Of a stretch of 64,000 bases of DNA, positions 13,137 to 39,633 are shown in pieces. Numbering within the stretch: position 1 is the stretch's first letter; each line of letters begins with the position of its first letter. The DNA is taken from NCBI GenBank assembly GCA_043797305.1, contig JAZDPW010000024.1:16650-80649 (forward strand), written 5' to 3'. Both the position numbers and the translations under genes were made by a program. Origin of the DNA: Candidatus Jorgensenbacteria bacterium. Lineage in GTDB: Bacteria > Patescibacteriota > Minisyncoccia > UBA6257 > GWB1-50-10. The notes under the pieces were generated by a model, which was not told the origin of the DNA, did no database searches, and was given only the letters and a program-made list of their open reading frames with translations.

Positions 13137-13252
13137 ATGTATCTATTATACAACTTATCTAAAAATCTTTCGGAAGAATATCCTCACCTTAAATATAAAG
13201 CTTTGCCACAACGTGCGACCAAGGTAGAAGTATTTTTTGAGATACCAGAGGT

Positions 13253-15019
13253 TCATAAAAATTCCGCTTTATAGCACGCATCGCAATAAATAATTTCCGG
13301 TTTCTCGGGCGCAAATGTAGTTTCGAACTCGTTCGTGCACCGTCCATTATGACCGTGCCCAACACTCTCACACATACAAGCTCTATGCCAAAGACGAAAA
13401 CCGTTCCGCCAGGAAAACCGTTCGGCAAGCCGGCAATTCGGGCAGAGCCGCGGCAGAGTAATATTCATATCGCGGTAGAACGCCAACTCTTCCGCGGTAA
13501 TGCGGAATGCGGTTACACACTGGTCGGCGCAGGTGCCTTTATGGGCGCAACCAATAGTCTCTTTCGTAATGGAATCACCAACATCCCGAATGTGATCGGG
13601 TAATTCCTCCGGTACCAACGTTATCTCATATGACCGCCGTTCCGGTTCACGCCATTGCCATCCTTCGGCAAGCGTTTCCGCTTTCGTTTTCGGGTACCAC
13701 GGGAATGCGAAGGTTTCATTATAGGCATATGCAGAAAGCTCGATCGGGAAAAATTCGCCGTATTTGTAGATACGTCCCTTCTTATCGCGATACGGCACCT
13801 CATCCATTTGCCGCCGGATGCGCCCGATAAGCTGTTCGTATTTTTCTTTCGTATACTGTTTGTTCAAGATGCAGTGTTTCTTGTTCCGCATGCTGATACA
13901 CCCGAACATATCCGACGAACCGACTACCCAATCGCAATACCATACGTCGTGGCTCCGGCCGCCCCCCGCTGAAAAGAATATTCGTTGATTGTTGCCGGTG
14001 ATAGCCATGGTTTCGTACATCAATTCCGAAGTGTCCCCGCCCCCACTCACATCGTAGCTGTCCTTCAAATTTAATCCCCCGAAAAACAGGTATTTGCAGT
14101 TTTCCACGCCATCAAGCGCTGAAAAGCAGGTCTTGCAATTTTTCGCGTCGCGAATGATGTCACCGGTTACGTTTTGGCTATTCAGCACGTGAGCGGGGCG
14201 GTGCGGGGTTGCAAGATACAACTCCCGGAATTTTTTCTTGGCTTCCTGTAATTTTTTATAACTCCCCAAATCCCACGCCGTGAGGCGGGTTCGATATTCT
14301 TCTTTTGAGAATTGCTTGTTGAAAAGGCAATACTTTTTCTTGCGGAGATTCACGCACCCGAAGCAGTCCGAGCAACCAACGCAGTTATAAAGAAACGAAG
14401 AATCAAGACATTCATCGGAGAAATACCCGTACCGAACCCGATACATCCGGTTCGAGTGGAGAACTTCGTAGACGGAGTCAGAATTGTCGGCTACATAACA
14501 ATCGAAGGCGTTCCGAGAAAGGAGGAGGGCGTAGCAATTCTGCGCATCTTCTGAAAAATAAGACCAAAATACATTGAAGCAATTTTTCAAGTTTACCGAA
14601 GCGTGGGAGAAATCGCTGTTAATAATATTCGTTGCTCCTGTTAGGGCCGGACGCGGCACCGCCTCCATAAGACGCCGATATTGCTCAAAGAACGGTTTCT
14701 TGAAATCATAATCCCGGCCGTAATCCATGGGATCCCATTTATCGGATATGTAGCACTCGCGACAGTACACCGTAAAAGGTCCACCGGGGGCGTGAATTGT
14801 GATAATCGGCTTGCCACACAGGTCACACTTACGGCGATACAAAGAAATATATTCCCGCCACGCCATCCGGCGCATGTTCCGGCACTCCGGGCAAAACGTC
14901 GGCGGCGGGACATCAACTTTCCTGTAGAAATCAAAATCTTGAGCGTCAATGTTAAATGATGCTTTGCAATTTTGACAAACTTTTGTTTCAGAAGCAGACA
15001 TAATTCTTATGTAAAACAA
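13253..15019 (-). CDS. cysteine-rich protein with repeated zinc-ribbon-like CxxC modules, function unknown
   Basis: 588 aa with more than 30 Cys. Repeated module NCxGCSDCFGCVNLRKKKYCLFNKQFSKEEY / MFGCISMRNKKHCILNKQYTKEKY, plus N- and C-terminal CxxC pairs. Confidence 0.5.
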   Translation of the reverse strand: MFYIRIMSASETKVCQNCKASFNIDAQDFDFYRKVDVPPPTFCPECRNMRRMAWREYISLYRRKCDLCGKPIITIHAPGGPFTVYCRECYISDKWDPMDYGRDYDFKKPFFEQYRRLMEAVPRPALTGATNIINSDFSHASVNLKNCFNVFWSYFSEDAQNCYALLLSRNAFDCYVADNSDSVYEVLHSNRMYRVRYGYFSDECLDSSFLYNCVGCSDCFGCVNLRKKKYCLFNKQFSKEEYRTRLTAWDLGSYKKLQEAKKKFRELYLATPHRPAHVLNSQNVTGDIIRDAKNCKTCFSALDGVENCKYLFFGGLNLKDSYDVSGGGDTSELMYETMAITGNNQRIFFSAGGGRSHDVWYCDWVVGSSDMFGCISMRNKKHCILNKQYTKEKYEQLIGRIRRQMDEVPYRDKKGRIYKYGEFFPIELSAYAYNETFAFPWYPKTKAETLAEGWQWREPERRSYEITLVPEELPDHIRDVGDSITKETIGCAHKGTCADQCVTAFRITAEELAFYRDMNITLPRLCPNCRLAERFSWRNGFRLWHRACMCESVGHGHNGRCTNEFETTFAPEKPEIIYCDACYKAEFL

Positions 15020-15194
15020 GCGAAATCCTGAGCGAAGGCGAAGGGCTCCAGCTCAATCGTGAACGATTTTTTACAATTCTGACACCGTTTATTCTCCGAA
15101 ATCATCAACTAAAATTATACCACCGTGTTCACCAAACCCATTAAGACCTGTTTACGATAAATACTCGCCATTTATCGTGTTAAATCAAGAAGAC

Positions 15195-15222
15195 GGGGTG
15201 TTATGACATGTCATAACACCCC
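15195..15222. repeat. 28-bp perfect palindrome GGGGTGTTATGACATGTCATAACACCCC; on the minus strand it also acts as the ppsA terminator stem
   Basis: Read directly. On the minus strand it is followed by a T-rich tract, 35 nt after the ppsA stop. Confidence 0.8.
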
Positions 15223-15254
15223 GTGAAGCCTTGTTTTTTTCCGCTTACTTTGCC

Positions 15255-17627
15255 CTACTCTACTTTTTTGATGGCGACAATTGTCCTGATAACCGTATCG
15301 GGGTTCAGGGAAATGCTTTCGATTTTTTCCTTGACCAGGAATTTGGCGAACTCCGGAAAATCGCTGGGCGCCTGGCCGCAGATGCCGATGTACTTTTTCC
15401 GCTTGCGGCACTTTTCGATAACTTTGCTTACCATTTCTTTCACCGCCGGGGAATTCTCGTTCCCGATGCGGGCGACGATTCCCGAATCCCGGTCGAGGCC
15501 TAAGACGAGCTGGGTTAAATCATTCGAACCGATGGACATACCGTCGCAAACATCCAAAAATTCGTCGGCAAGAGACACGTTCGAGGGAATTTCGCACATT
15601 ATATAAACCTTCAGGCCGTCTTTGCCCCGCCGCAGGCCGTTTTTCGCCATCACCGCCAAGACTTTTTTGGCTTCTTCCGGCGTCCGACAGAAAGGAATCA
15701 TGGCGACGGCGTTTTTCAAACCGAACTTCTCGCGCACCCGCCGCAACGCCTTGCATTCCAAGCCGAAGGCTTCTTCGAATTTCGGGTCATAATAGCGCGA
15801 AGCGCCCCGCCAGCCGAGCATCGGATTTTCCTCGGCGGGCTCGTAAAGTTCGCCGCCGATGAGTTTTCTGTATTCGTTCGTCTTGAAATCCGAAAAGCGG
15901 ATTATCGCCTCCTCCGGGTAAAAGGCGGCGGCAATTTTGGCGACGCCTTCAGAGAGCTCGTCGACGTAAAACTGGGTTTTGTTCCGATAACCCGGCGTCA
16001 GGGAATCTATTTTGGCAATCAGCTTTTTATCTTTAATTTTCTTGTAGTCAATGAGCGCGTTCGGGTGAATTCTGATGTGCGATGCAATGATAAATTCCAG
16101 CCGGCCCAGACCCACTCCCTTGACCGGCAAGTAATGATTTTTGAAAGCTTCGTCCGGCGAGCCGATGTTTACCATCACCTTGGTTCTCGTCTTCGGAATT
16201 TTGTCCAGGTGGTGCTCCAAAACCTCAAATGGGACTTTGCCGGAGTAAACCAACCCCTCGCCGCTCGAGACGCAGTCGACGGTGATGACCGCTCCGGTCT
16301 TGAGCTTCCTTGTCGCGTTTTCCGTCCCGACCACGCAGGGAATGCCGAGCTCGCGCGAGACGATTGCCGCATGCGATGTCCTCCCACCCTTGTCGGTCAC
16401 GATGGCCGAGGCAATTTTCATAATCGGCTCCCAGTCCGGGTCGGTAATGTCGGTTACGAGCACCTCGTCCTTTTTGAATTTTCCGATGTCTTTGACGTCT
16501 TTTATGATTTTTGTCCGGCCGGATGCGATTTTCGTGCCGACGGCAACGCCGGAGACAAGAACTTTCCCCTTTCCCTTAAGATGATATTCGAGATAAAGCT
16601 TCTTTTTGCCCAGGGAGTGGACCGTCTCCGGTCTCGCTTGAAGAATGAAAAGTTCTTTCGTCTTGCCGTCCTTCGCCCACTCGATGTCCATCGGCTGGTA
16701 ATGTCTGTAAACGCGGGAGAAATATTTTTCTATAATCATGCTCCACTCGGCGAGTTTGATAATTTCCGCTTCGTTCAAGGAAAAGGAGTTCCTGTCGCGG
16801 GCGGAAACTTCCGCCAGCTTCGTGCCCGTCTTTCCGTAAACGAGTTTTATGTTTTTGGGGCCCAGGTTTTTCGCAATAACCGGATGAAAACCCTCCTCAA
16901 GCGTCGGTTTGAAAACGATAAATTCGTCCGGCGTCACTTTCCCCTGGACAACCATCTCACCCAAACCGTAGGAAGAGTTTATGATAATAACCTTGTCGAA
17001 ACCGGTTTCGGTGTCGATTGTAAAAATAACGCCCGATGAAGCGATGTCCGAACGAATCATTCTCTGAACGCCGACCGAAAGCGCTACGTCAAAGTGGGAA
17101 AATCCCTTATCGGCCCGGTAAGAAATCGCCCGGTCGGTGAAAAGCGAAGCGATGCATTTCCTTACGGCTATTGCGAGTTCCTCTTCGCCTCGAACGTTCA
17201 AATACGTTTCTTGCTGGCCGGCGAAAGAAGCGCCGGGCAAATCCTCCGCCGTTGCGGAAGAGCGGACCGCCACATCAACTCCCTTGCTGTACTTTTTTTC
17301 CATCCGGCGGTAAGCCAGATTGATTTCCTTGGTTATTTCCTTCGGCAAAACAAGCGACAAAATAAGCGTCCGAATCATCCGGCCGCGCTTTTTCAAATCG
17401 TTGACGTTTTTGAGGTTTAAACCCTTTAGAATCTCCTTAATTTTGAGGTCGGCTCCGTTTTCCTTGAGGAAAAAACGGTAAGCGGCGGCGGTAAGAGCAA
17501 AACCGTTGGGAATTTTCACCCCGAGTTTTGTAAGGTGGGAATACATCTCGCCTAGGGCGGCGTTTTTGCCGCCGACTTTCGGCACGTCTTTCATTCCAAT
17601 TTTCGAAAACGGGAGGATAAATTTCAT
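15255..17627 (-). CDS. ppsA: phosphoenolpyruvate synthase (pyruvate, water dikinase)
   Basis: 790 aa. N-terminal ATP-grasp nucleotide-binding domain, central phosphohistidine swivel GGRTSHAAIVSRELGIPCVVG, C-terminal PEP-utilizing TIM domain. Confidence 0.85.
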   Translation of the reverse strand: MKFILPFSKIGMKDVPKVGGKNAALGEMYSHLTKLGVKIPNGFALTAAAYRFFLKENGADLKIKEILKGLNLKNVNDLKKRGRMIRTLILSLVLPKEITKEINLAYRRMEKKYSKGVDVAVRSSATAEDLPGASFAGQQETYLNVRGEEELAIAVRKCIASLFTDRAISYRADKGFSHFDVALSVGVQRMIRSDIASSGVIFTIDTETGFDKVIIINSSYGLGEMVVQGKVTPDEFIVFKPTLEEGFHPVIAKNLGPKNIKLVYGKTGTKLAEVSARDRNSFSLNEAEIIKLAEWSMIIEKYFSRVYRHYQPMDIEWAKDGKTKELFILQARPETVHSLGKKKLYLEYHLKGKGKVLVSGVAVGTKIASGRTKIIKDVKDIGKFKKDEVLVTDITDPDWEPIMKIASAIVTDKGGRTSHAAIVSRELGIPCVVGTENATRKLKTGAVITVDCVSSGEGLVYSGKVPFEVLEHHLDKIPKTRTKVMVNIGSPDEAFKNHYLPVKGVGLGRLEFIIASHIRIHPNALIDYKKIKDKKLIAKIDSLTPGYRNKTQFYVDELSEGVAKIAAAFYPEEAIIRFSDFKTNEYRKLIGGELYEPAEENPMLGWRGASRYYDPKFEEAFGLECKALRRVREKFGLKNAVAMIPFCRTPEEAKKVLAVMAKNGLRRGKDGLKVYIMCEIPSNVSLADEFLDVCDGMSIGSNDLTQLVLGLDRDSGIVARIGNENSPAVKEMVSKVIEKCRKRKKYIGICGQAPSDFPEFAKFLVKEKIESISLNPDTVIRTIVAIKKVE

Positions 17628-20529: not shown

Positions 20530-21231
20530 TCACTCTCTTCTTATGATTAACTCTTCCTCGGAATTCTCCTTTTTAATATTCCCGATTACGGTCTCAGCCA
20601 CAAAATCGGGCTCCATATGCTTGTCGTAATCCGCCGGCTTCTGCTCGTCGAACAAACCGGTTTTCATCCCGCCCGGGTATATTGCCAACACTTTGATATT
20701 TTCCGGCTGCACCTCGAGACGAAGCGATTTCGTGAAACCGACGGCGGCATATTTGCTCGCGCAATAACCCGAAGAACCGGGACGGCCTTGAAGCGCACTC
20801 GTGGAAAGAATGTTTATTATCGTTCCGGATTGCTGCTTTTTCATCTGAATAAGAGCCGCTTTCGAGCCGTGTATCGTGCCGAACAAATTAACCTCTATCA
20901 TGTCGTGCACTCTCTTTAAATCCATCTTTTCTACGGGGGCGTGAGGAATCCAAATCCCGGCGTTGTTGATCCAAACGTCAATGCGGCCGAATTTCTGAAT
21001 GGTAAAATTCGCCAATTTGTTTATTTCGTTCTCTTCCGTTACGTCGGCGGTGAAAAAATCTGCTTTCAATTCCCGGCCCAATTCTTCCAGTCCTTCGCCT
21101 GACCGCGAACTTAAAATCAGTCGTGCGCCCTCTTTGGTAAAAGCAAAAGCCAGCGCCCTGCCCAAGCCGCGACTTGCACCGGTGATTACGACAACTTTGC
21201 CTTTAATGGTCATTTCTGTTTTCTCTACCAT
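20530..21231 (-). CDS. SDR family short-chain dehydrogenase/reductase
   Basis: N-terminal VVVITGASRGLGRALA (TGxxxGxG), NNAG, and YxxxK (YCASKYA). Confidence 0.85.
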   Translation of the reverse strand: MVEKTEMTIKGKVVVITGASRGLGRALAFAFTKEGARLILSSRSGEGLEELGRELKADFFTADVTEENEINKLANFTIQKFGRIDVWINNAGIWIPHAPVEKMDLKRVHDMIEVNLFGTIHGSKAALIQMKKQQSGTIINILSTSALQGRPGSSGYCASKYAAVGFTKSLRLEVQPENIKVLAIYPGGMKTGLFDEQKPADYDKHMEPDFVAETVIGNIKKENSEEELIIRRE

Positions 21232-21351
21232 CTCCGCTCCCGGTTACGATAACCGTTTTGTTCTTCAGGTTCATGATACATATATATTATCACTTTCTTG
21301 ATGAAGATTTAATAGATTTTTATCCAAAAACTGGCGGGATCTGTACGCCTC

Positions 21352-21381
21352 AAAAATTATGTCCATATGGACATAATTTTT
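21352..21381. repeat. 30-bp perfect palindrome AAAAATTATGTCCATATGGACATAATTTTT at the left edge of the GC-rich island
   Basis: Read directly. Centred on CATATG. Confidence 0.9.
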
Positions 21382-21393
21382 GAGGACACGGAG

Positions 21394-21438
21394 TTTTTAA
21401 AAACAGATGCGGGGGCCGATGATTCATCGGTCCCCCGC
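21394..21438 (-). terminator. rho-independent terminator of gene 21480..21920
   Basis: Minus strand: GCGGGGGACCGATGA-ATCA-TCGGCCCCCGC followed by ATCTGTTTTTAAAAA. Confidence 0.65.
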
Positions 21439-21479
21439 CTGCTCCCGCTCTTGTTGTCCCGGGAAAGCGGAATCCGGGG

Positions 21480-21920
21480 TCAGGTCGCGCCGACCGGTCG
21501 GCCGGCGGGAACGCCGCGCATCGCCTCCTTCTCGACGACCTCCGTGCCACGGTAGGCGCGGATCATCATGATGATGGCGAGAATCAATGCCGCGATCTCC
21601 GTCTTGTAGAGAAACGGCGCGCAGAGGTTCTCCGGCACCTGATACGTCTCGCCCGCGTGGACGACGATGTCCATGTCGCTCGGACCCTTGAGCCACCGAC
21701 TCGGGTCACTGAGCGCCTTGTTGCCCCTCACCATCGGCCACCGGTACCAGCGGCCCCGACTCAGCCAGCCAGAGACACCGGAACCCGCACAGAGGGCGTT
21801 GGTAGCTGACGCCAAGCTCTCGCCTTCCTTGAAGGTATGAGTCAGCGGCAGGTTGTACCTCGACCCGGTGGCTGCGACGAGAGCGAGCGCGAGTAAAACG
21901 AGAAACCAGTCCGTCTTCAC
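21480..21920 (-). CDS. secreted/membrane-anchored hypothetical protein (GC-rich island)
   Basis: GTG start with AAGGAGG 4 nt upstream. Signal peptide VKTDWFLVLLALALVAATG and a C-terminal hydrophobic segment. High GC3. Confidence 0.55.
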   Translation of the reverse strand: MKTDWFLVLLALALVAATGSRYNLPLTHTFKEGESLASATNALCAGSGVSGWLSRGRWYRWPMVRGNKALSDPSRWLKGPSDMDIVVHAGETYQVPENLCAPFLYKTEIAALILAIIMMIRAYRGTEVVEKEAMRGVPAGRPVGAT

Positions 21921-21954
21921 TGTGCCTCCTTGGGTCAGAGTTGGACTTGTGCTG

Positions 21955-22034
21955 TCCTTAGAATGAAAAAATTTGAACAACCTGTCAAGTTTTTAAAATG
22001 GAAGCGGGGAACCGATGTTGAGTCGGCTCCCCGC
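21955..22034 (-). promoter_or_regulatory. intergenic cassette: terminator hairpin of the LysM gene, then a TTGACA -35 and a conserved CAAATTTTTTCATTCTA block upstream of gene 21480..21920
   Basis: Minus strand: GCGGGGAGCCGAC...TCGGTTCCCCGC, then TTCCATTTTAAAAAC, then TTGACA-17nt-CATTCT, then AAGGAGG-4nt-GTG. Confidence 0.5.
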
Positions 22035-22080
22035 TTTTGCTTCCGCTTGTGCTTTCCGCCTTAGTAGGCGGGTTCCCTTG

Positions 22081-23448
22081 TTAGGAGGCCGCAGGCGTCT
22101 CCACGGTCTCGGGCTCCGGCGCGGACTGGATGTCCGGCTCGGGCTCGGCGACGGGCTCGTCGACCCCTGCGAGGGTCGCGCGCCCGCTGAAACCGAGGAA
22201 GTTCGCGCCGGGCTCGACGGGCGCCTTGGTCTCGATGACGACATAATCGCCCTCGATGACCGGCTCGTCATCGAGGAACCCGATGACGCGGTTGCCGACT
22301 GCCCGCACGGTGACCCGCCGGCTCGCCTGCCGCCGCGCCCGCTCGGCCTGCTCGACGGCCTCCCAGTCGGGGGCCGAGTGGATAGCGGCGTACTCGAACG
22401 GCTCAATGAGCGCGCCCTCGATCCAGTTCCGCCGGTACTGGATCACGTTCGCGCAGAACCCGAGCACGCAGACACCCTTGAACTCGTCCACGATCTCGTC
22501 GCCCCGACGGACGACGACGTCCAGGATCCATCCCGGCTCGCGCACGAGGACGACCTCGCGACGCGTGTCGTCACCGTAGGTCACCTCGAAGGTCCGACCG
22601 GGGCGCGACGAGATGAGGACGCGCCGTTCGTTCTGGCGCTCGAAGGTGAGATCGAACATGTCCGCGCCCTGGTGAAGACGCTGGTAGGCGGCCTGTGCCG
22701 CGTCGTCGAGAATCTCTTCTCGATTCGCCTCGGTCACACCCTCGAACTGAGAGGGTGGACCAGCCATGACACCGTCCTCAACCCCATCGGGCAGCGGCGG
22801 CATGTGGCCTCGCATGATCACGAAGTCGGCCCGGCGCTGCTCGGCCAGGCGACGCTCGTGTGAGACTCGCTCATTGTCGAGCAGCTCGTCCATGTTCCTC
22901 AGCTCCGATCGGAGAGACTTGATGGTCTCCTCGAGTCTCGCGACGACCCTCCTGAAACGCCGATTGTCGGCGAAGAAGCAGACGACCGCCACGAGGGCGA
23001 TGACGAGGAGTGCCCACACCCACCAGGGGCCGAGAGAGGACGCTTCCTCTGCGCCGGCGACCGAACCGGCGGCGACGGGTACCGGCGCTTCCGAGGCCGG
23101 TACGACCACTGAGCTTGCACCCTGACATCCCACCGTGGGGATGGCGAGGTGCTCGCCCGGGAAGACCAGCACGATCTGCCGCCCGTTACGAACGGACAGC
23201 CGACCCTGCTCCTCGAGGTAGGGATTGAAACCGTAGATCTCCTCCCAGCGAAGCGCGTCACCGCACTTCTCGTAGGCGAGGTCCCAGAGGGTCGAACCCT
23301 TCACAACCACGAACTCCTCCGTGGTCACGACGACCTGCTGTGTCGGCGGCACTGCCTCATACTGGCGCAGAGCGGCCCCTCCGAAGATAAGCGGCGCTGG
23401 GATCAGACAGCCGAGGACGAAGAGCACCTTCTTGAGGAACTTCTTCAC
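22081..23448 (-). CDS. LysM domain-containing membrane protein
   Basis: GTG start with GGAGGTG upstream. Signal peptide, then LysM domain (GSTLWDLAYEKCGDALRWEEIYGFNPYL...QIVLVFPGEHLAIP), a TM helix (WWVWALLVIALVAVVCFF) and a charged coiled-coil-like segment. The plus-strand ORF 22015..22863 is its antisense shadow (GC3 supports the minus strand). Confidence 0.7.
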   Translation of the reverse strand: MKKFLKKVLFVLGCLIPAPLIFGGAALRQYEAVPPTQQVVVTTEEFVVVKGSTLWDLAYEKCGDALRWEEIYGFNPYLEEQGRLSVRNGRQIVLVFPGEHLAIPTVGCQGASSVVVPASEAPVPVAAGSVAGAEEASSLGPWWVWALLVIALVAVVCFFADNRRFRRVVARLEETIKSLRSELRNMDELLDNERVSHERRLAEQRRADFVIMRGHMPPLPDGVEDGVMAGPPSQFEGVTEANREEILDDAAQAAYQRLHQGADMFDLTFERQNERRVLISSRPGRTFEVTYGDDTRREVVLVREPGWILDVVVRRGDEIVDEFKGVCVLGFCANVIQYRRNWIEGALIEPFEYAAIHSAPDWEAVEQAERARRQASRRVTVRAVGNRVIGFLDDEPVIEGDYVVIETKAPVEPGANFLGFSGRATLAGVDEPVAEPEPDIQSAPEPETVETPAAS

Positions 23449-23507
23449 GTTCCACCTCCATATGAAATTGTGAGGTACAGAAAAACGGCTTTCACCGTTA
23501 CCTTATT

Positions 23508-23585
23508 ATTATAATTTATATTTTTGAAAATGTCAAGCTAAATTAAAAAAGAAGCGGGGGCGCGGTGTGGAAACGCACGCCCCCA
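23508..23585 (-). promoter_or_regulatory. intergenic cassette: rho-independent terminator followed by a consensus sigma70 promoter TTGACA-17-TATAAT for the LysM gene
   Basis: Minus strand: GGGGGCGTGCG...CGCGCCCCC then GCTTCTTTTTT, then TTGACA(23536..23531)-ttttcaaaaatataaat-TATAAT(23513..23508), then GGAGGTGG upstream of the GTG. Confidence 0.7.
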
Positions 23586-23604
23586 TTGCTCTTCTGCGAC
23601 CGGC

Positions 23605-23778
23605 TCACGAGATGTCCTCTCTTGCTCGCTCCTCGCGACCAATCGCCTTGAATTCCTTGACGATTGCGGGAAGGAGGAAAATCAGGAGGACAACCTTCGC
23701 TAATCGCGAAGGAATCGAAACGCAGGCGAAGAAGCCTAGCGCCACGAGAACCTCCGCGACAACTGAATTGAGCTTCAT
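23605..23778 (-). CDS. small membrane protein (57 aa)
   Basis: ATG with GAGGAGG 5 nt upstream: MKLNSVVAEVLVALGFFACV...LLIFLLPAIV. Flanked by a terminator hairpin downstream and a promoter upstream. Confidence 0.5.
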   Translation of the reverse strand: MKLNSVVAEVLVALGFFACVSIPSRLAKVVLLIFLLPAIVKEFKAIGREERAREDIS

Positions 23779-23807
23779 AACCGCCTCCTCGGGGCAAGGG
23801 TTGCTAT

Positions 23808-23885
23808 CTATAGAATGAAAAAATTGACGCGACTTGTCAAATAAAAACGAAGGAGGGGCGCGGTGCTTCCGCACTCACGCCCCTC
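23808..23885 (-). promoter_or_regulatory. intergenic cassette: terminator hairpin followed by TTGACA -35 and the same conserved CAATTTTTTCATTCTA block as at 21955..21995
   Basis: Minus strand: GAGGGGCGTGAGTGCGGAAGCACCGCGCCCCTC then CTTCGTTTTTAT, then TTGACA-17nt-CATTCT, then GAGGAGG-5nt-ATG of the 57-aa gene. Confidence 0.55.
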
Positions 23886-23910
23886 TTGCTTATTCCTCGA
23901 CGGCTTGCCG

Positions 23911-24636
23911 CTACGAACTGCGGCGGCAGTCGACGTACTCGGCCGGGTCGAGGCCGAGCTCAACGAGATCGAGTCCCCGCCGGCAGGCCTTGAAGGCGAT
24001 CAGGTCGACCACTTCTTCGGCGCCGCTGACCTCGAGAAGCTGCAGGCGGACGTCGTTCAGGACAGCCCGCTTGAACTCCGCGGACGTCGTGCCGATCGCT
24101 CCCAACTTGCCGTCTCCGTCGCTCCGGAAGAAGATGGAAACGCTGTTGGACTCGAAGACGTTGCCGGGTGGGTTCAGGAGGTAAGCGATCTCCTCAACGA
24201 CATCGAAGGGGTCGTCGAGATAGACGAGTTCCAACCCTCCGTCGGCGAGCGCATGCCAGTGGCACGGTTCGGCCTTGAGCCGGACCAGCCGCGGCATGGA
24301 GAGAACAGCGAGGAACCTCTTCGCGAGTTCCCGCCGCTCGACCTCCGCGAGCGCTTCGGAAACCGTCGGTCTCTGCGCCGGCGGAGTCCGACTCTCCTCG
24401 ATGAGCTGGTTGGTCGACTCGACTATCCGGTCGAGGCGAACCCGCTCGCGGCAGATATCCACGAACTGCCGCTCATAGTCGGAGGGCGGAGTCGCGTAGA
24501 CGGTCTCGATCTCATCACCTACTCTCGGCGTCAGCGTCCTGCCGACCGCGATGTAGATCATGATCATGAGAGATAGCGCGCCGAGTGTTGCGGCGGCGGG
24601 CTTGAGCCACACCGGGAGCCTCTTCATGGTACCCAT
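23911..24636 (-). CDS. membrane-anchored hypothetical protein
   Basis: N-terminal anchor MGTMKRLPVWLKPAAATLGALSLMIMIYIAV. High GC3 on the minus frame. The plus-strand ORFs 23834..24184 and 23863..24576 are judged antisense shadows. Confidence 0.55.
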   Translation of the reverse strand: MGTMKRLPVWLKPAAATLGALSLMIMIYIAVGRTLTPRVGDEIETVYATPPSDYERQFVDICRERVRLDRIVESTNQLIEESRTPPAQRPTVSEALAEVERRELAKRFLAVLSMPRLVRLKAEPCHWHALADGGLELVYLDDPFDVVEEIAYLLNPPGNVFESNSVSIFFRSDGDGKLGAIGTTSAEFKRAVLNDVRLQLLEVSGAEEVVDLIAFKACRRGLDLVELGLDPAEYVDCRRSS

Positions 24637-24816
24637 TCCTTTCGGTTCGGTAGAACCGCGTTGGGGAGGTATGACAATAACGCTCGCATTACACTAAACG
24701 TCTTTCACGTTTCTGTCAAGGTATTTTCCGGGTTGTGCTTGACAAATCCCCCTCTTTGGCTAACCTTACTGAACGGATTTAAGAACCCGTGAGAAAGGTC
24801 AAAAAACAACAAGCAA

Positions 24817-25008
24817 ATGGCGTTTCAGGATAACGACGGCGGCGGTTTTCAGCGGAAAATGTACCAAGGAAACTGGGTTTGCTCAAAATGCGGCAAGGAA
24901 ATCACCGAGCTGCCCTTTGAGCCCGACCCGAATCGGGCCAACCAGTTAAAGTGCAAGGACTGCTTCAAGGAAAATCTTCCTCCGAGAAGAAATTTCGGTC
25001 GCTACTAA
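24817..25008 (+). CDS. small zinc-ribbon protein (CxxC...CxxC)
   Basis: 63 aa with WVCSKCGKE...LKCKDCF. Followed immediately by a canonical hairpin+T-run terminator. Confidence 0.55.
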   Translation: MAFQDNDGGGFQRKMYQGNWVCSKCGKEITELPFEPDPNRANQLKCKDCFKENLPPRRNFGRY

Positions 25009-25020
25009 ACCGAAAAAACA

Positions 25021-25047
25021 AAAACCGCCTCTACGGCGGTTTTTGTT
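25021..25047 (+). terminator. rho-independent terminator of the zinc-ribbon gene
   Basis: AACCGCC-TCTAC-GGCGGTT followed by TTTTTG. Confidence 0.8.
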
Positions 25048-25060
25048 AAGTGTGTAAAAA

Positions 25061-25110
25061 GTGAGGAGCCCGGGCGCAGTGTGCGTCCGGGCTCTCCTCG
25101 CTTGAAAACA
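25061..25110 (-). terminator. rho-independent terminator of gene 25127..25606
   Basis: Minus strand: GAGGAGAGCCCGG...CCGGGCTCCTC followed by ACTTTTTACACAC. Confidence 0.55.
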
Positions 25111-25126
25111 CCCTCGCTCGGATCAC

Positions 25127-25606
25127 CTACACCCGGTCGAGAAATCTGCTCTCGTCGCCGATAGGAAGCCGAGTCTGAGTCGGCTGTCCCATCAGCTCCG
25201 CGAGCATCTTCTCCGCCCTGTCCGAGAAGGGCGGAACGTTGTCCCGGACATCCTTGAGCGTCCGGACGGTGAGGCATCCCCGCTCTCCGAGGAAGTCCCA
25301 GATCTCGCTCTGAAATTCGGCGAGATCCGACTCCACTTCGCAGGCCTTCTTGAGAACGGCGACAAGCTCGTCGTCGCTCGGCCGAGACCCGACGTCGCTG
25401 AACTTCGCCCGGAGGTTTTGCCAACGAGCGGAGAATTCTCTCCTCACGCTCGTTTCCGAATCGTTCGAAGTTGTCGGCTTAAGCGTCCCTCCTTTGGGGC
25501 TGCCGGGGTTGCGAAGAATCGATTCTTCGTTGGAAACGACGCTCTTGTTTAAAACGCCGCTTCCATGGTGCTTATTCAGCGTAGCATAAAACCACCATAA
25601 TGTCAA
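25127..25606 (-). CDS. hypothetical protein (GC-rich), start uncertain
   Basis: ORF of 159 aa. A TTGACA-17-TACGCT promoter-like sequence overlaps its 5' end, so the true start is probably internal. Downstream hairpin+T-run terminator. Confidence 0.35.
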   Translation of the reverse strand: MTLWWFYATLNKHHGSGVLNKSVVSNEESILRNPGSPKGGTLKPTTSNDSETSVRREFSARWQNLRAKFSDVGSRPSDDELVAVLKKACEVESDLAEFQSEIWDFLGERGCLTVRTLKDVRDNVPPFSDRAEKMLAELMGQPTQTRLPIGDESRFLDRV

Positions 25607-25611
25607 ACCAC

Positions 25612-25648
25612 CAAAAACAATCCCGCCCCGACTTTTAGTCGGGGCGGG
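25612..25648 (-). terminator. rho-independent terminator of the DUF378 gene
   Basis: Minus strand: CCCGCCCCGAC-TAAAA-GTCGGGGCGGG followed by ATTGTTTTT. Confidence 0.7.
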
Positions 25649-25675
25649 TTCTGTTCCGGAAAATTGTCCGGTTTA

Positions 25676-25885
25676 TTACATTGATGCGCCTCCCTTCGTG
25701 CAGCACTTGCAGTTCCCGCTGTGGGTAAAAATCTCGTAAAGAGCGGAAAGACCGACCAAGACGTAGACAACGGTCGCTACCGTGTCGCCCAAATACGCCA
25801 CAACGTTCCAGCCGAAAGCGGTCAAAAGCCAGTTCAAACCACCGATGACAAGAAGAACGAAGGCGATTTTGTGTAAAACCTTCAT
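25676..25885 (-). CDS. DUF378 family small membrane protein
   Basis: 69 aa, IAFVLLVIGGLNWLLTAFGWN...YVLVGLSALYEI matches the DUF378 pattern (GGLNWGL...LVGLSALY). Confidence 0.65.
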   Translation of the reverse strand: MKVLHKIAFVLLVIGGLNWLLTAFGWNVVAYLGDTVATVVYVLVGLSALYEIFTHSGNCKCCTKGGASM

Positions 25886-25980
25886 ATTACTAGTTGTTGA
25901 TTACTAGTTGATTTATAGTACCGACCTTTAATGTTTTCATTATTATAGCATAAAGCACTAAAAACCCTTTAAAAACGACA

Positions 25981-26014
25981 GAGCTCCGGGGACCCAATAG
26001 GATTCCCGGAGCTC
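25981..26014 (-). terminator. rho-independent terminator of the ParB-like gene
   Basis: Minus strand: GAGCTCCGGG-loop-CCCGGAGCTC (10-bp stem) followed by TGTCGTTTTT. Confidence 0.65.
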
Positions 26015-26048
26015 GTGCTTTCCGAAGTTAACAAGCGGATTGGTAGAC

Positions 26049-26975
26049 CTAGACATTCAGGCGCTCAAGGTACTCAAGAAACTGTCCAAGCCCGCTCAAG
26101 CATTCCCGAATCTGGCCAACCATTGCATCCCTGTCCTGAGGACTGCGATTCTCGAACATCCGGTCGAAGTTCCCTGCCGGCATATCGAGAATGGCGTCAG
26201 TGCTCTCACCGAGGCGCCGGAGGAAACTGCTCAGATTACGGTAGTCATCCGAGGGCTTCCTCACTCTGCCCTTACCAGCCGATTCCCCGGCTTCCTCGGC
26301 CACCCGCCTTGCATAAACGCGGGCTTGGTTCAGCCTCATCCCTTTCTCGACGATGTGCCGGGCAATCTTCAGTTGAAGCTCGGGAGAAAGGCTGGATAAA
26401 AAAATCGCGACAGAGAAGACGAGTCTCTTTTCTCCATTGTTGGTCGGCCCCATGAGAATCTGAACTTCCGGATGAAGCTTCAGAAGACCGAGGTGTTGGT
26501 AAATCCAGGGAATCGACCGGGCGAACATGTTGGCCACTCTCTCAACCTGCCGCGTTCTTGGGATACCCGCCACCAACCGACCTTTCAGAATCCGGTCGAT
26601 GGCATGGGCAACCTCAAGCGATGTGTGCGGCTGATGAGCCATGTTGGAAACAACCGAATGGACGAACTGCTCGTCTTCGTCTTCCGGGTCTCCGATTATC
26701 GCCTTAATCTCCTCTCGACCCATTCGGACATGACAGATCCAGCGACGCTCGCCATCGATGAGCTCGTAGTCGTGCTCGGGATCACCCTCGATGGGCATCA
26801 CCTCGACCGGTCTTCTCAGACCGACTTCCTTAATGCTTGCCTTCAACTCGCCGAGAGCAACCTCGTCGAAATGGATCCGGGGCTGACCCTTGAAGGGTCT
26901 GATCCGCTTTGTCCGTAAGAAGAGGTAGCCCATCTCTCTTCTTGTTTTGGCTTTCGCCAACGCAGTGTCGGACAT
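26049..26975 (-). CDS. ParB/Srx N-terminal domain protein (ParB-like nuclease/partition-like)
   Basis: N-terminal ParB-like domain with ELIDGERRW (ParB GERRxRA-type motif). 308 aa. Strong AGGAAGGAGG SD. Downstream 10-bp-stem terminator. Confidence 0.55.
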   Translation of the reverse strand: MSDTALAKAKTRREMGYLFLRTKRIRPFKGQPRIHFDEVALGELKASIKEVGLRRPVEVMPIEGDPEHDYELIDGERRWICHVRMGREEIKAIIGDPEDEDEQFVHSVVSNMAHQPHTSLEVAHAIDRILKGRLVAGIPRTRQVERVANMFARSIPWIYQHLGLLKLHPEVQILMGPTNNGEKRLVFSVAIFLSSLSPELQLKIARHIVEKGMRLNQARVYARRVAEEAGESAGKGRVRKPSDDYRNLSSFLRRLGESTDAILDMPAGNFDRMFENRSPQDRDAMVGQIRECLSGLGQFLEYLERLNV

Positions 26976-27061
26976 GGGTCTACCTCCTTCCTAATAAGAT
27001 TATTGTACCGGGAACTGAAATAAAAATAGCATCTCCTGCCAAGAAACGGAAGTCGCTTCCA

Positions 27062-32973: not shown

Positions 32974-33088
32974 GGCGAAAATAAATATCCCCGCTACTTG
33001 TCCCCCGTGTAGGATTTGAACCTACGACCATCTGCTTAAAAGGCAGTTGCTCTACCAGACTGAGCTAACGGGGGTATTTATTTTCGCC
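32974..33088. repeat. 14-bp perfect inverted repeat (GGCGAAAATAAATA / TATTTATTTTCGCC on the minus strand) bracketing the inner tRNA-Lys plus 13 nt
   Basis: Arms at 32974..32987 and 33075..33088 read directly from the sequence. They lie inside the intervening region of the interrupted tRNA. Confidence 0.8.
33001..33074 (-). tRNA. tRNA-Lys (anticodon UUU), 74 nt, no encoded CCA
   Basis: Hand fold: acceptor CCCCCGU/ACGGGGG (C1:G72), D-arm GCUC-AGUCUGGU-AGAGC, anticodon stem ACUGC/GCAGA with loop CUUUUAA, T-arm GUAGG-UUCAAAU-CCUAC, discriminator A. Very similar to canonical bacterial tRNA-Lys. Confidence 0.8.
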
Positions 33089-33689: not shown

Positions 33690-33950
33690 ATAGTATATGT
33701 ATTCCCCGGCCCGCCTCGCCGAAGACAAGCTTCAGTTTCCTAAAACCTATGTCGGCAGTACCACTGACTTAAAGAGGAGGTTGGCAGAGCATAACAGCGG
33801 GAAAACCATTATTCTCCGCAAGGTATAAGCCATGGAGAGTGATTTATACGGAGGAGTTTGCTAACATAAGTGAAGCTAGAACCAGAGAAAAATATTTCAA
33901 GAGCGCAGCTGGCAGAAGATTGATAAAAAAGTTAATAAACAACGATTCCC
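33690..33950 (+). pseudogene. GIY-YIG nuclease family gene, disrupted (frameshift, N-terminal GIY motif lost)
   Basis: Frame 1 gives ...KTYVGSTTDLKRRLAEHNSGK then a stop. A shifted frame continues PWRVIYTEEFANISEARTREKYFKSAAGRRLIKKL, which matches the C-terminal half of small GIY-YIG (Uri-domain) proteins. The 3' end runs into tRNA-Asn. Confidence 0.6.
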
Positions 33951-34018
33951 CGGTAGCTCAGTGGTAGAGCGACCGCCTGTTAAGCGGTTGGCCGTAGGTT
34001 CGAATCCTACCCGGGGAG
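33947..34018 (+). tRNA. tRNA-Asn (anticodon GUU), 72 nt
   Basis: Hand fold: acceptor UCCCCGG/CCGGGGA, D-arm GCUC-AGUGGUA-GAGC, anticodon stem ACCGC/GCGGU with loop CUGUUAA, T-arm GUAGG-UUCGAAU-CCUAC, discriminator G. Confidence 0.8.
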
Positions 34019-34050
34019 CAATCCTTCGCTAAAGCTTCGGAATTGCAGGC

Positions 34051-35045: not shown

Positions 35046-36200
35046 CTATTTTTTATTCTTCTCGGATTTACCTGAATTAAGTAGTTTCTTGGGTACTCGC
35101 GGTTCTTCTTCAATTCTTTTTATTCCTTCGCCAACAGGAATATTACCACCAAGGTCATTGATTCGATCTATTTCGGGTCGTACTCTAGTTTCAAAGGAAC
35201 CGATAGCTTCGTTAAACTTTTTCGTCGCCTGTGAAATATTTAGACCTATTCCGCCAACATGACCAAAAAATGTTTCCAATCTACCTTTTAATTCCTCAAC
35301 CTCATTTTTAATCTTCGTTGCATTTTCTGTAACTCTGTACTGTTCCCATCCATTACGGATTAAAAGTATCAGCGGTATTATTATAGACCGACTTGCCAAC
35401 ATTACATTCTTACTTTGGGCTTCAGAGTATAGATCATTGTCGTGTTGAAGAGCTTCTAGTAATGCACTTTCAATCGGGACAAACATAACTACATATGGAA
35501 TTTTCGTGTCAACATATTTCTGATATTCCTTACTCGACAAATCCCTAATTTTCTTTCTTAGGCCGTCAATAAAATTCTCGATGTGCTTAATTCTTTCTTC
35601 TGGTTGTTCTTCTTCGCGTGCTTTCTCGAACTCATACAAACTTGCCAAGCTCGCTTTGGAATCCACCGCGAGGGTCATCCCTCCTGGAAGACGAATAGTA
35701 AAATCTGGCCTTAAAATAGACGAACCTTCACCCGAAACAGTTTCTTGAACATCAAAATCCGTTCCTTTGGCCATCCCCGCTTTCTCAAGTAAATTACTTA
35801 GGGTTGCCTCTCCCCATCTGCCTATAGCAGTACCACTGGAAGAAAGCACCGTCTTGAGCATCTTGGCTGAATCGCTTATTTCCTGACCAGTTTTCAGAAC
35901 TTGCCCAATGCCGGCAACCAGTTTACCCACTTGTTCGTTTTGTTCCTTCTCCAACTTATCAACCCTCGTTCCTACCGATTCAACCAGATTTTTAACGTTT
36001 TTTTCCGCGTCGCCGAATTTCGTGCCAGCTAGTCGCAGAAAATCCTCCGAACTTTGGCGGAGGACGTCGCCTGCAATAACTTTAAATTTATCCTCAAGTT
36101 CCTCCGGGCTCTTTCCTTTACGTTTAAATAAGAACCAACCCGCCAATAAACCGATGACGCCACCCACAACAAACGATATTAAAAACTCTAAATAGATCAT
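35046..36200 (-). CDS. rmuC: DNA recombination protein RmuC family
   Basis: N-terminal TM helix, long coiled-coil, and the RmuC core with TAIGRWGEATLSNLLEKAG (cf. RGNWGExxLERVLE). 384 aa. The start overlaps the stop of the upstream gene (ATGA). Confidence 0.75.
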   Translation of the reverse strand: MIYLEFLISFVVGGVIGLLAGWFLFKRKGKSPEELEDKFKVIAGDVLRQSSEDFLRLAGTKFGDAEKNVKNLVESVGTRVDKLEKEQNEQVGKLVAGIGQVLKTGQEISDSAKMLKTVLSSSGTAIGRWGEATLSNLLEKAGMAKGTDFDVQETVSGEGSSILRPDFTIRLPGGMTLAVDSKASLASLYEFEKAREEEQPEERIKHIENFIDGLRKKIRDLSSKEYQKYVDTKIPYVVMFVPIESALLEALQHDNDLYSEAQSKNVMLASRSIIIPLILLIRNGWEQYRVTENATKIKNEVEELKGRLETFFGHVGGIGLNISQATKKFNEAIGSFETRVRPEIDRINDLGGNIPVGEGIKRIEEEPRVPKKLLNSGKSEKNKK

Positions 36201-38977: not shown

Positions 38978-38982
38978 ATTAG

Positions 38983-39633
38983 TTATTGAAACAGGTTTTT
39001 AAATTCTTTCTCTAGCCAGTCCAAGAACGCTAGGACTTTTTTATTCTTAGCCGCCGCGGCCGATTGTTTTAGCTGTTCAAGGTATTTAGATAATAGGTGT
39101 TGGGGAGTATACGGCACAGCTTTCAGGAAGGACAAAACTTCGTAATCAGTAACCGAAAAATCCTTGTTTTGCCATTTTTGGAACAAATGAGATTTTTCCA
39201 TTTCTAAAACGTCATCTTGCGGAGATCGTCCGCGCGAACGTTTTGATGATGAAGCCGCACTTAGTTTTAGTCTGGTGGGATGTTTTAGTAGATCCTCAGT
39301 TTGTAATGCAACCTCCTTTCCCGTTTCTGTCAGACAAAATCCATTCTCGATGTTACCGGTTGCCCAATTTTTTCGTTTAGGATCCGCTAATCTTCTAAGG
39401 GACTTATTGATCCTGTTCGTATCTGGATACTCTTTGAAATTAGCCATGGAGAATTTATTTGGAAACATTTTGAAAAGACCAACAACTATGTGATCGAAAT
39501 ATAGGGGTATTTTTTTTCTTTCTAAGACGATGAGGCTATAAACCACCAATCTGTCCAAATCAAAATTTTCGTAGCTCTTAACAGAGAGTGGTCTGAAACT
39601 AAATATTATTTTTTTGTAATCGATGTTTTTCAT
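38983..39633 (-). CDS. hypothetical protein (216 aa), second gene of the AT-rich operon
   Basis: Long ORF in an AT-rich context, 6 nt upstream of the 926-aa gene, and overlapped by the 72-aa gene by 4 nt. No motif recognised. Confidence 0.45.
   Translation of the reverse strand: MKNIDYKKIIFSFRPLSVKSYENFDLDRLVVYSLIVLERKKIPLYFDHIVVGLFKMFPNKFSMANFKEYPDTNRINKSLRRLADPKRKNWATGNIENGFCLTETGKEVALQTEDLLKHPTRLKLSAASSSKRSRGRSPQDDVLEMEKSHLFQKWQNKDFSVTDYEVLSFLKAVPYTPQHLLSKYLEQLKQSAAAAKNKKVLAFLDWLEKEFKNLFQ

Follow-up and report, generated by a model that had tools for sequence, protein, structure and literature searches.

We report a conserved, hypervariable and persistently GC-rich cluster of envelope genes encoding new protein families, found in a 64-kb stretch of DNA from a Candidatus Jorgensenbacteria bacterium (Patescibacteria; contig JAZDPW010000024.1, positions 16,650 to 80,649), hereafter called the window. 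The cluster comprises four minus-strand genes, designated C (21480–21920), B (22081–23448), A (23911–24627) and D (25127–25447), which are interspersed with genes and spacers of ordinary composition in a block extending from 21232 to 27061. The initial annotation of this block, made from its sequence alone, had proposed a contiguous, horizontally acquired island, an interpretation not borne out, given both a GC content that alternates from one open reading frame (ORF) to the next and the occurrence of the block at the same site in two related loci (L010 and L004). We propose instead, with what we regard as an even chance of being right, an old, vertically inherited and recombining chromosomal envelope cluster confined to Patescibacteria, diversifying and strongly transcribed, whose GC excess is kept in place. 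The evidence lies in the composition pattern, the synteny, the contrast in rates, the mosaic alleles, the rarity of the B family and the conservation of its promoter and leader. Known phenomena, i.e. hypervariable surface loci and recombination-linked GC heterogeneity, are combined here with an unexplained and unusually sharp composition pattern.

Composition, gene order and divergence of the cluster

The window is ordinary core chromosome (enolase, phosphoenolpyruvate-utilising enzyme, glycerate kinase, P-type ATPase, ribonucleotide reductase, CysRS, DnaB, RecR, L21), with an overall GC content of 49.4% that rises to 66.7% in the 1-kb bin 22001–23000. Calculated over 300 bp at a time, GC was 0.58–0.72 between 21.35 and 23.45 kb, 0.60–0.65 between 23.75 and 24.65 kb and 0.59–0.62 between 25.1 and 25.55 kb, against 0.48–0.54 at 23.3–23.9 and 24.5–25.1 kb. 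The GC richness initially estimated by eye for 21.4–25.6 kb is therefore real, the computed values differing from those of the flanks, but it is patchy, being carried by four ORFs only, and the right-hand third of the block, from 25.55 to 27.06 kb, stands at 0.44–0.57.

The excess is limited to the coding sequences (CDSs) of C, B, A and D, with GC contents of 0.58–0.67 and GC contents at third codon positions (GC3) of 0.79–0.84. Scored against a background of 54 other ORFs of the window (mean GC3 0.57, standard deviation 0.083), C, B and A reached 0.82, 0.84 and 0.83, respectively (z = 3.1–3.3), while D reached 0.72 over the whole ORF (z = 1.8) and 0.79 when only its likely CDS is counted. First codon positions (GC1), the Arg/(Arg+Lys) ratio and the GARP/FYMINK amino-acid balance were shifted in the same direction in C, B and A. 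The genes for ParB (GC3 0.66), DUF378 (0.66), a zinc-ribbon protein (0.64) and a 57-aa membrane peptide (0.64) all lie within about one standard deviation of the background, and nine out of nine spacers of the block have 39–54% GC. Composition thus alternates gene by gene, the DUF378 and zinc-ribbon genes sitting at background composition among the GC-rich ones. ParB and DUF378 had been counted as parts of the presumed island, from which they are set apart by this background composition and, for ParB, by its absence from the syntenic L010 locus.

Within B, GC3 is high throughout: the region encoding the ectodomain has 0.79, that of the conserved cytoplasmic core 0.85 and that of the C-terminal part 0.91. 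Codons ending in C and codons ending in G are both more frequent, with a strong preference for CTC and GTC that is alike in all loci, and third positions display no evident strand asymmetry. An overlapping antisense gene over B was considered and rejected: the long antisense ORFs are a by-product of GC richness, because shuffling synonymous codons gives ORFs that are no shorter.

The comparison loci (L001–L013) are contigs fetched for their relatives of B; L004, L007 and L010 originate from independent assemblies of other samples, L004 and L010 both belonging to ERZ27254732. In the window the gene order is HlyD-ABC-MacB-MacB-ParB-DUF378-D-[ZnR]-A-57aa-B-C-SDR-ATP-grasp, where ZnR denotes the zinc-ribbon gene. 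The 9.7-kb L010 locus reads NUDIX / HlyD-ABC-MacB-DUF378-D-[ZnR, opposite strand]-A-B-C, its DUF378 and zinc-ribbon genes having been recovered by tblastn since they were not called as genes there; L004 reads ZnR-A-B-C-SDR-ATP-grasp and L007 A-B-C. The block hence occupies, in L010 and L004, the same position between the same ABC-transporter operon and SDR gene, and an SDR gene also adjoins in L011 and L001. Gene order is B-A'(-SDR) in L006 and L011 and L19-B-AbrB-like-SDR in L001, a 729-kb Patescibacteria genome (42% GC over the stretch read), and different neighbourhoods surround B in L001, L008, L009 and L013. Three additions are local to the window: the ParB gene, a second MacB gene and, accompanied by a duplicated terminator-promoter module, the 57-aa gene.

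As the initial annotation had already noted for integrases, transposases and direct-repeat ends, signs of mobility were not found: Pfam identified no integrase, transposase or reverse transcriptase in the block or in the scanned ORFs of the window (long ORFs covering much of the 64 kb, several of them lacking any Pfam match), and a repeat search returned no flanking direct or att-like repeats around the block. The three tRNA genes of the window are located at 33.0, 33.9 and 61.1 kb, none of them at a border of the block, the nearest being the one at 33.0 kb. The block resembles a classical genomic island by its atypical composition and surface-related products, but differs in being non-contiguous, in being devoid of mobility genes, tRNA or repeat borders, and in occupying the same site in relatives.

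Proteins of the GC-rich genes diverge far more than those around them. Amino-acid identities between the window and L010 are 78% for HlyD, 73% for ABC, 56% for MacB, 92% for DUF378 and 90% for the zinc-ribbon protein, versus 53%, 56%, 48% and 57% for D, A, B and C. Likewise, between the window and L004, SDR and ATP-grasp are 87% and 91% identical, and A, B and C 54%, 46% and 54%. GC3 in the window and in L010 is 0.79 and 0.79 for D, 0.83 and 0.78 for A, 0.84 and 0.86 for B, and 0.82 and 0.75 for C, compared with 0.66 and 0.54 for DUF378 and 0.64 and 0.55 for the zinc-ribbon gene. Synonymous divergence (dS, Nei-Gojobori) is 0.7–1.1 for all window–L010 pairs except MacB (1.85), a gene that is duplicated in the window. 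Non-synonymous divergence (dN, same method) is 0.06 for DUF378 and the zinc-ribbon gene, 0.14–0.22 for HlyD and ABC, and 0.33–0.48 for D, A, B and C, whose dN/dS is 0.36–0.54. The proteins of these four genes change about six times faster than their neighbours. Within 5 kb, genes of the same strand, history and neighbourhood thus differ by about 0.2–0.3 in GC3 and about six-fold in dN.

Since synonymous changes saturate at a lower ceiling when GC3 is skewed, codon identity at identical residues was scored against the saturated expectation. The excess was 0.23–0.29 in the cluster and 0.41–0.48 in the flanks, and synonymous sites are therefore unsaturated. This comparison shows that the GC-rich genes and their counterparts in L004 and L010 go back to common ancestors of roughly the age of the genomes, much as the flanks do, and have diverged in place with about 1.7 times more synonymous turnover. 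Had a remote donor replaced them wholesale, such residual codon identity would not be expected.

The GC excess is a property of the B family and not of one genome. Across eight loci whose neighbouring genes have GC3 of 0.38–0.66, B or B-like genes have GC3 of 0.65–0.90, i.e. 0.15 to 0.35 more. On a logit scale the shift over the background averages 1.31 (standard deviation 0.44), and B tracks its background (r = 0.66 over the eight loci), with GC3 of 0.65–0.69 in genomes of 38–41% GC3. As the synonymous divergence of the flanks amounts to about 0.4 per lineage and turnover is faster in the cluster, a passively inherited GC3 of 0.85 should have decayed well toward 0.55–0.60, and it has been kept everywhere. 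For decay to be absent from every lineage, fixation would therefore have to favour GC, with a scaled strength that stays roughly constant; under the Li-Bulmer model, where this strength equals the logit shift, we calculate it as about 1.3.

Alleles of B are mosaics. Between L006 and L011, the signal peptide (93% identity), cytoplasmic core (84%) and C-terminal part (86%) are close and the ectodomain is not (24%), whereas L004 and L007 share their ectodomain (82%) and core (94%) with a signal peptide at 67% and a C-terminal part at 42%. L008 and L009 are alike in the core (79%) and nowhere else (signal peptide 22%, ectodomain 16%, C-terminal part 14%), and the window matches the protein P0010 best in the ectodomain (55%, versus 21%, 26% and 18% for signal peptide, core and C-terminal part). 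Alleles of A also re-assort relative to those of B and C: B and C of L007 resemble those of L004 (79% and 92%), while the available part of its A is nearer to the A of the window (60%) than to that of L004 (44%). In a PHI-type test of compatibility (213 informative amino-acid columns, 2000 permutations), z was -12, a score that spatial autocorrelation of rates can inflate when the test is run on amino acids. Taken together, the incongruent segments of B, the re-assortment of A and the PHI-type score led us to conclude that homologous recombination between diverged alleles is frequent at this locus.

Protein B and its control region

Gene B (GC 0.67), delimited from its ORF and translation, encodes a 455-aa protein matching NCBI V2A55_02430 with 100% identity, the latter being encoded on an 81.9-kb contig of a metagenome-assembled genome of Candidatus Jorgensenbacteria. 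Its predicted order of parts is a signal peptide, a divergent LysM ectodomain, a Pro/Ala/Ser linker, a transmembrane helix, a coiled coil of about 60 aa and cytoplasmic parts. In AlphaFold models, a helix from residue 142 to 214 spans both the transmembrane segment and the coiled coil, between which lie positive-inside residues. The coiled coil is followed by the conserved segment MPPLPDGV..AGPP..FEGVT..NR and then by an alpha+beta domain in which a helix packs on a five-stranded sheet and which bears the motifs VSSRPGETFEVTFGD, VTLVREPGWI, CVLGFCAN and EPYEYAAVHS.PDW in alignments and models; a small beta domain and an acidic, Pro-rich tail form the C-terminus. Fold searches with B returned nothing significant.

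The annotation of B as a LysM protein is supported by a profile of the B family, which hits multi-LysM proteins at E = 1e-13 to 1e-15, and not by Pfam itself. Pfam LysM (PF01476) matched neither B nor ectodomains taken alone, even at E <= 1. On the other hand, positions ~40–90 of the B-family profile match more than 1000 proteins among 1.84 billion cluster representatives, often as several repeats, and four sampled repeat-bearing matches (P0013, P0016, P0017 and P0030), recognised by the family profile at E = 1e-10 to 1e-15, are LysM proteins according to Pfam (E = 1e-21 to 1e-47). The LysM region of B also weakly matches the wall-binding region of an endolysin PHROG. Given the profile matches to multi-LysM proteins, we interpret the ectodomain of B as a divergent LysM. 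It exists in two types, typified by 'GSTLWDL..KCGDA.RW' and 'G.N.WDLS.EMY..GV.WP.IYGWNV'.

The family is rare. Relatives of B form seven 90%-identity clusters among 5.8 billion proteins, to which a second search with the family alignment added none, and an exhaustive HMMER search of the 1.84 billion representatives of 50%-identity clusters found about ten that match B over its full length or across its cytoplasmic domain. Loci with B comprise one in the species representatives of GTDB and two metagenome contigs of JGI, and IMG/VR contained no relatives. The most remote member, a paralogue-like protein of L013, is 30% identical with the same architecture, and its gene has a GC3 of 0.65 in a background of 0.38. 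Our search of the literature found no description of the B family or of GC-rich envelope genes in the Candidate Phyla Radiation (CPR).

By its layout, B recalls the FimV/HubP polar hub proteins, which are exported by a signal at the N-terminus, bind peptidoglycan in the periplasm through a LysM-like domain, cross the membrane once and possess a large cytoplasmic region, part of which is acidic, with low sequence conservation beyond these general features (PMC12918733). The FimV/HubP/TspA proteins of Proteobacteria and B share the order of their parts, with a LysM-like domain outside, a single transmembrane segment and a large cytoplasmic region. However, the C-terminal FimV TPR domain is absent from B, no FimV/HubP model of Pfam or NCBIfam hits it, its cytoplasmic part consists of a coiled coil and a family-specific alpha/beta domain, and the organisms that carry it are monoderm-like Patescibacteria. 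B is an architectural analogue of FimV/HubP and, because it lacks the TPR domain, not a member.

The control region of B (23449–23536, minus strand) associates a TTGACA-17-TATAAT promoter (23508–23536) with a GGAGG Shine-Dalgarno sequence and a GTG start. This promoter is the sole perfect TTGACA-N16-18-TATAAT of the 64-kb window, where 0.02 would be expected, and in 12 related loci with upstream sequence there is exactly one perfect site each, always directly upstream of B or a B-like gene; it is present also in L001, L009 and L013. The leader contains a hairpin (23481–23498, minus strand), ACGGTGAAAGCCGT followed by a T-run, which occurs once in the window. In most aligned loci, a hairpin of the form ACGG(T)-loop-(A)CCGT with its T-run comes directly after the -10 box, another hairpin takes the same position in L009, and the GGAGGTG Shine-Dalgarno is common to most loci. 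Rfam provided no family for the leader, nor for the terminators and the palindrome described below.

Judging from these alignments, the control region of B is better conserved than the protein itself, its signals point to very strong expression, and the leader hairpin is possibly a 5' stabilising stem-loop. Lpp and OmpA of E. coli are abundant wall-membrane tethers with strong promoters and stabilised mRNAs. B resembles them in a peptidoglycan-binding module, putative here, joined to a membrane anchor, in a perfect-consensus promoter and in a 5'-proximal leader hairpin, but has no relation to them in sequence or fold and crosses the cytoplasmic membrane to a large cytoplasmic domain.

Companion genes and surroundings of the cluster

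The cell-envelope theme perceived at first was confirmed by the predicted signal peptides, transmembrane anchors and LysM-like ectodomain of the cluster. Gene A (GC 0.64) encodes 238 aa from its second ATG, in agreement with the 238-aa NCBI gene model, with a predicted N-terminal membrane anchor and an extracytoplasmic domain of ~190 aa bearing up to four conserved cysteines. Homologues of A adjoin B in L004, L007, L010, L006 and L011; A had no match in Pfam, PHROG, NCBIfam or PDB, and a word-indexed homologue search returned only A itself. Gene C (GC 0.64), with a GGAGG Shine-Dalgarno and a GTG start, encodes 146 aa that would comprise a signal peptide, an ectodomain of ~95 aa in which two cysteines are conserved, and a C-terminal transmembrane helix followed by a short tail. 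It has homologues of 53–57% identity downstream of B in L004, L007 and L010, and no family or PDB match.

Gene D encodes a predicted small cytoplasmic protein of ~106 aa whose start is uncertain. Its mechanically called ORF reaches 25606, where the TTG is the beginning of the TTGACA -35 box of D's own promoter, and the GTG at 25447 is the first plausible start. A Shine-Dalgarno-like sequence, AAAGGAGGG, lies inside the ORF with no canonical start codon at the usual distance. The homologue in L010 has 117 aa, the same position and 53% identity. The defence models of PADLOC yielded a single match, a weak partial JetA for D (E = 0.0037), which was disregarded along with weak partial SLATT and TAC matches among the four proteins; A, B, C and D have no family in Pfam, PHROGs, NCBIfam, PADLOC or PDB.

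The B–C spacer (21921–22080, minus strand; GC 0.49) contains a small hairpin, the terminator of B, a T-run, a TTGACA promoter and the Shine-Dalgarno of C, and aligns across four loci (window, L004, L007 and L010). A perfect palindrome of 38 bp (19+19; 21348–21385), unique in the window, separates the terminator of C from the SDR promoter. It had been described as a 30-bp mark of the left edge of an island, a role ruled out by its conservation in the orthologous C–SDR spacer of L004 (3251–3284), where a perfect 34-bp palindrome has the same ends, CCTCAAAA...TTTTGAGG, and the same centre, GTCCATATGGAC, with inner bases that differ from those of the window and are nonetheless complementary to each other, i.e. 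co-varying. This element probably belongs to the regulatory region of SDR, and its conservation suggests an operator or hairpin for the SDR/ATP-grasp unit. An SDR gene is found just downstream of the B cluster in four lineages (window 20530–21231, L004 3374–4066, L011 2570–2662 and L001 11773–12489), with proteins only 33–87% identical, and the linkage of B and SDR may be conserved.

The 57-aa two-helix membrane peptide gene (23605–23778, minus strand) possesses an ORF, a Shine-Dalgarno, a promoter and a terminator of its own. tblastn detected no counterpart in any related locus, where the A–B spacers have just 141–202 nt, and the gene lies outside the conserved cluster, confined to the window. 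The terminator-plus-promoter modules at 21950–22036, upstream of C, and 23802–23892, upstream of the 57-aa gene, are 77–85% identical, with a further copy at 23541–23567, and this window-specific gene seems to have come together with the duplicated module.

The three annotated families of the block were substantiated. The zinc-ribbon gene (24817–25008), on the plus strand as first reported, encodes 63 aa with a CxxC-x17-CxxC pattern (zf_Tbcl_2, 29.7 versus a cut-off of 27; TIGR04272) and its product is 89–90% identical in L010 and L004. The DUF378 membrane protein gene (25676–25885, minus strand; 69 aa, Pfam E = 8.8e-14) has a product 90–92% identical in L010. No Shine-Dalgarno is recognisable at 25886–25915, before its start, which is preceded by the near-repeat ATCAACTAGTAA / TCAACAACTAGTAA. 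Thus, the statement that every gene of the block has its own Shine-Dalgarno and hairpin terminator holds for most of them, but not for DUF378, without an obvious Shine-Dalgarno, nor clearly for D with its uncertain start.

The ParB/Spo0J-family gene (26049–26975, minus strand; 308 aa) matches ParB_N PF02195 (E = 9e-14) and TIGR00180 (74.4 bits versus a cut-off of 58.45). There is no adjacent gene for a ParA ATPase, the neighbours of ParB being a MacB permease and DUF378. ParB lies ~2.6 kb from B in the window, and in L013 a ParB_N gene (8042–9013; 34% identical) stands two genes away from the remote B-like gene. The proximity of ParB to B in the two loci could be due to chance or to a functional link like that of HubP, a tether of the ParAB-bound origin.

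Several other features of unusual composition were encountered. A low-GC block at 35046–39633, with a GC of 0.37–0.40 where the window has 0.49 and a GC3 of 0.34–0.38 where the window has 0.57, contains the genes for RmuC, a 926-aa protein with a sigma-70 region 4 and a DnaA C-terminal helix-turn-helix, and a 216-aa protein without family, just right of tRNA-Lys (33000–33074) and tRNA-Asn (33947–34019). It is a better candidate for a horizontal island than the GC-rich block, because it is contiguous and near tRNA genes. Two more ORFs without a Pfam family have raised GC3, one at 41095–41742 (plus strand; 0.72), whose product has a signal peptide and a secreted, beta-rich appearance, and the other at 62379–63779 (minus strand; 0.75), encoding a 466-aa soluble protein. 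A PfkB-family kinase gene (59242–60066; GC 0.37, GC3 0.36) lies far below the window mean and overlaps the end of its neighbour. In L010, a 94-aa ORF by the NUDIX gene (1311–1595, minus strand) has a GC of 0.61 and a GC3 of 0.78 in surroundings of 0.47–0.50 GC. In L001, ten small genes without family (12938–17045; GC 0.26–0.36, the first 0.44, for a locus mean of 0.42) directly follow B-AbrB-SDR and look like a separate variable region. Finally, the B-bearing contigs L004, L006–L009, L011 and L012 mostly measure 1.5–4.4 kb and end at or near the cluster, which would fit assembly breakage from strain heterogeneity, although short contigs are the norm in these collections anyway.

Origin of the GC excess and significance of the cluster

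We envisage that B would be strongly expressed from its consensus promoter, leader hairpin and strong Shine-Dalgarno, as a bitopic membrane protein whose divergent LysM ectodomain would hold peptidoglycan and whose cytoplasmic parts, the long coiled coil and the family-specific alpha/beta domain, would mediate oligomerisation or the docking of partners. It would serve as an abundant wall-to-membrane tether or scaffold with a FimV/HubP-like layout, joined in the Jorgensenbacteria-like lineage by single-pass A and C, with their cysteine-bearing ectodomains, and by the small cytoplasmic D. Ectodomain, cytoplasmic core and C-terminal modules of B would be re-assorted by homologous recombination between related strains, and host cells or phages would exert a diversifying pressure on the exposed parts. 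The GC excess would be an equilibrium resulting from a bias of fixation toward GC in these ORFs alone (logit shift ~1.3), and biased gene conversion, with frequent fixation of recombinant tracts, would be the leading candidate for its source. Bacterial genes with signs of intragenic recombination have a higher GC, chiefly at GC3, independently of codon optimisation (Lassalle et al. 2015, PMC4450053), and it is because recombining genes are GC3-richer that conversion is favoured here; as the force behind the excess, it nevertheless stays a tentative proposal that we judge rather more doubtful than the cluster history itself. The present locus conforms to that pattern in that the mosaic genes are the GC3-rich ones, and departs from it by a far larger shift (+0.15 to +0.35 GC3), by its restriction to four ORFs among unaffected genes and by its recurrence in backgrounds of 0.38–0.66.

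Several points weigh against this history and its proposed force. To our knowledge, a shift of this size is far above the average differences reported between recombining and non-recombining genes of bacteria. The interleaved DUF378 and zinc-ribbon genes, of 190–210 bp, and the spacers remain at background composition although a regional conversion bias should reach them, so that purifying selection, or the fixation of recombinants of the variable genes only, has to be invoked. GC3 is as high in the conserved core of B as in its variable ectodomain and does not follow the mosaic parts, and the PHI-type score is open to the inflation mentioned above. Relaxed constraint could account for the elevated dN/dS of the four genes just as diversifying selection could, and the high expression of B is predicted from sequence signals.

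Selection at the transcript level, whereby very strongly transcribed genes would be kept GC-rich for mRNA lifetime (fewer AU-rich RNase targets) or for translation, would make the fast protein evolution a separate effect of surface exposure. In its favour are the perfect promoter, 5' hairpin and strong Shine-Dalgarno found before every B, even at 30–45% protein identity, a GC shift that ends at ORF boundaries and is uniform along B, the joint rise of C- and G-ending codons with their shared CTC/GTC preference, and a logit shift of similar size across backgrounds, such as a constant selection coefficient would produce. Yet high expression would also be expected of L21, enolase and L19, none of which is GC-rich: GC3 is 0.61 for L21 and 0.60 for enolase in the window and 0.37 for L19 against a background of 0.41 in L001, which rules out general codon optimisation as the cause. 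Moreover, codon choice alone would not suffice for the observed shifts of GC1 and the Arg/Lys ratio, and A, C and D are equally GC-rich without perfect promoters. We regard this explanation as unlikely. Recurrent import from an unsampled GC-rich pool (host, phage or a GC-rich clade of Patescibacteria), swapping alleles via the conserved spacers, agrees with a composition (GC1 0.72, GC2 0.44, GC3 0.84) equal to that of a ~66% GC genome, with the demonstrable exchange of alleles and modules, with the differing neighbourhoods of B in L001, L008, L009 and L013, and with an identity of B between the window and the close L004 (46%) no higher than with the distant L001 (45%). We consider it improbable, as every B locus with sequenced flanks has flanks of lower GC, and the search for a donor lineage suggested in the initial annotation brought no GC-rich donor among the 1.84 billion representatives, in which about ten matches occur, and no relatives in IMG/VR. 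Codon identity with L004 and L010 orthologues and a dS like that of the flanks speak for co-inheritance, the GC3 of B follows the background, down to 0.65–0.69 in genomes of 38–41% GC3, the spacers are homologous and AT-rich, and mobility genes, att-like repeats and border tRNAs are lacking in the block.

A locus-specific mutator biased from AT to GC, lifting both the substitution rate and the GC of these ORFs, would explain why amino-acid rate, ~1.7-fold synonymous turnover and GC enrichment coincide gene by gene, with sharp ORF edges and in many lineages. Nevertheless, no gene for a reverse transcriptase or a deaminase and no template repeat was found in the window or the examined loci, the block genes and their vicinity have no long direct repeats such as those of diversity-generating retroelement targets, and no reverse transcriptase was detected in the scanned ORFs. 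Besides, the synonymous rate is just modestly raised and third positions show no evident strand asymmetry. We know of no locus-specific GC-biased mutator mechanism in bacteria and deem this explanation highly improbable. A mis-join of a GC-rich stretch from another organism, a concern raised for both boundaries, has the composition jump alone in its favour and a negligible chance of being true: GC alternates at several ORF boundaries and not at one pair of breakpoints, and chimeric assembly is very unlikely because independent assemblies share the junctions, namely C-SDR in L004, MacB-DUF378-D-ZnR-A-B-C in L010 and A-B-C in L007. A bolder reading, to which we give little credence, is a gene-specific, GC-directed diversification of a few envelope genes across Patescibacteria, with a protein rate raised ~six-fold and a GC3 kept 0.15–0.35 above that of the genome in all lineages. 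Its candidate sources would be an exceptionally strong, selection-focused biased conversion or an unknown targeted mutator, leaving genes 100–200 bp away untouched.

A precedent for variable envelope genes in CPR bacteria is a surface-protein gene of Gracilibacteria, which varies within and between populations and fragments assemblies through variation in the number and sequence of 9-nt repeats that preserves the peptide (Sieber et al. 2019, PMC6851277). Both cases concern a CPR envelope gene with sharp variation; here, repeats are absent, and the variation lies in diverging amino acids, exchanged modules and a shifted GC. For genome annotation, the cluster illustrates that a composition jump alone mislabels such loci as horizontally acquired islands. 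It also constitutes an unusually clean natural experiment on the determinants of GC content, since the offset recurs across very different base compositions, and population data from metagenomes could separate biased gene conversion from selection in bacteria, a long-standing argument.

CPR/Patescibacteria are thought to live attached to other cells, and very few components of their envelope are known. B is a rare candidate for such a component, with the strongest-looking promoter of the window, a predicted peptidoglycan-binding ectodomain and module-swapping alleles, properties that would be expected of a protein at the interface with host cells or phages. If true, gene-specific diversification would be a new way for minimal episymbiotic bacteria to keep their exposed surface changing.

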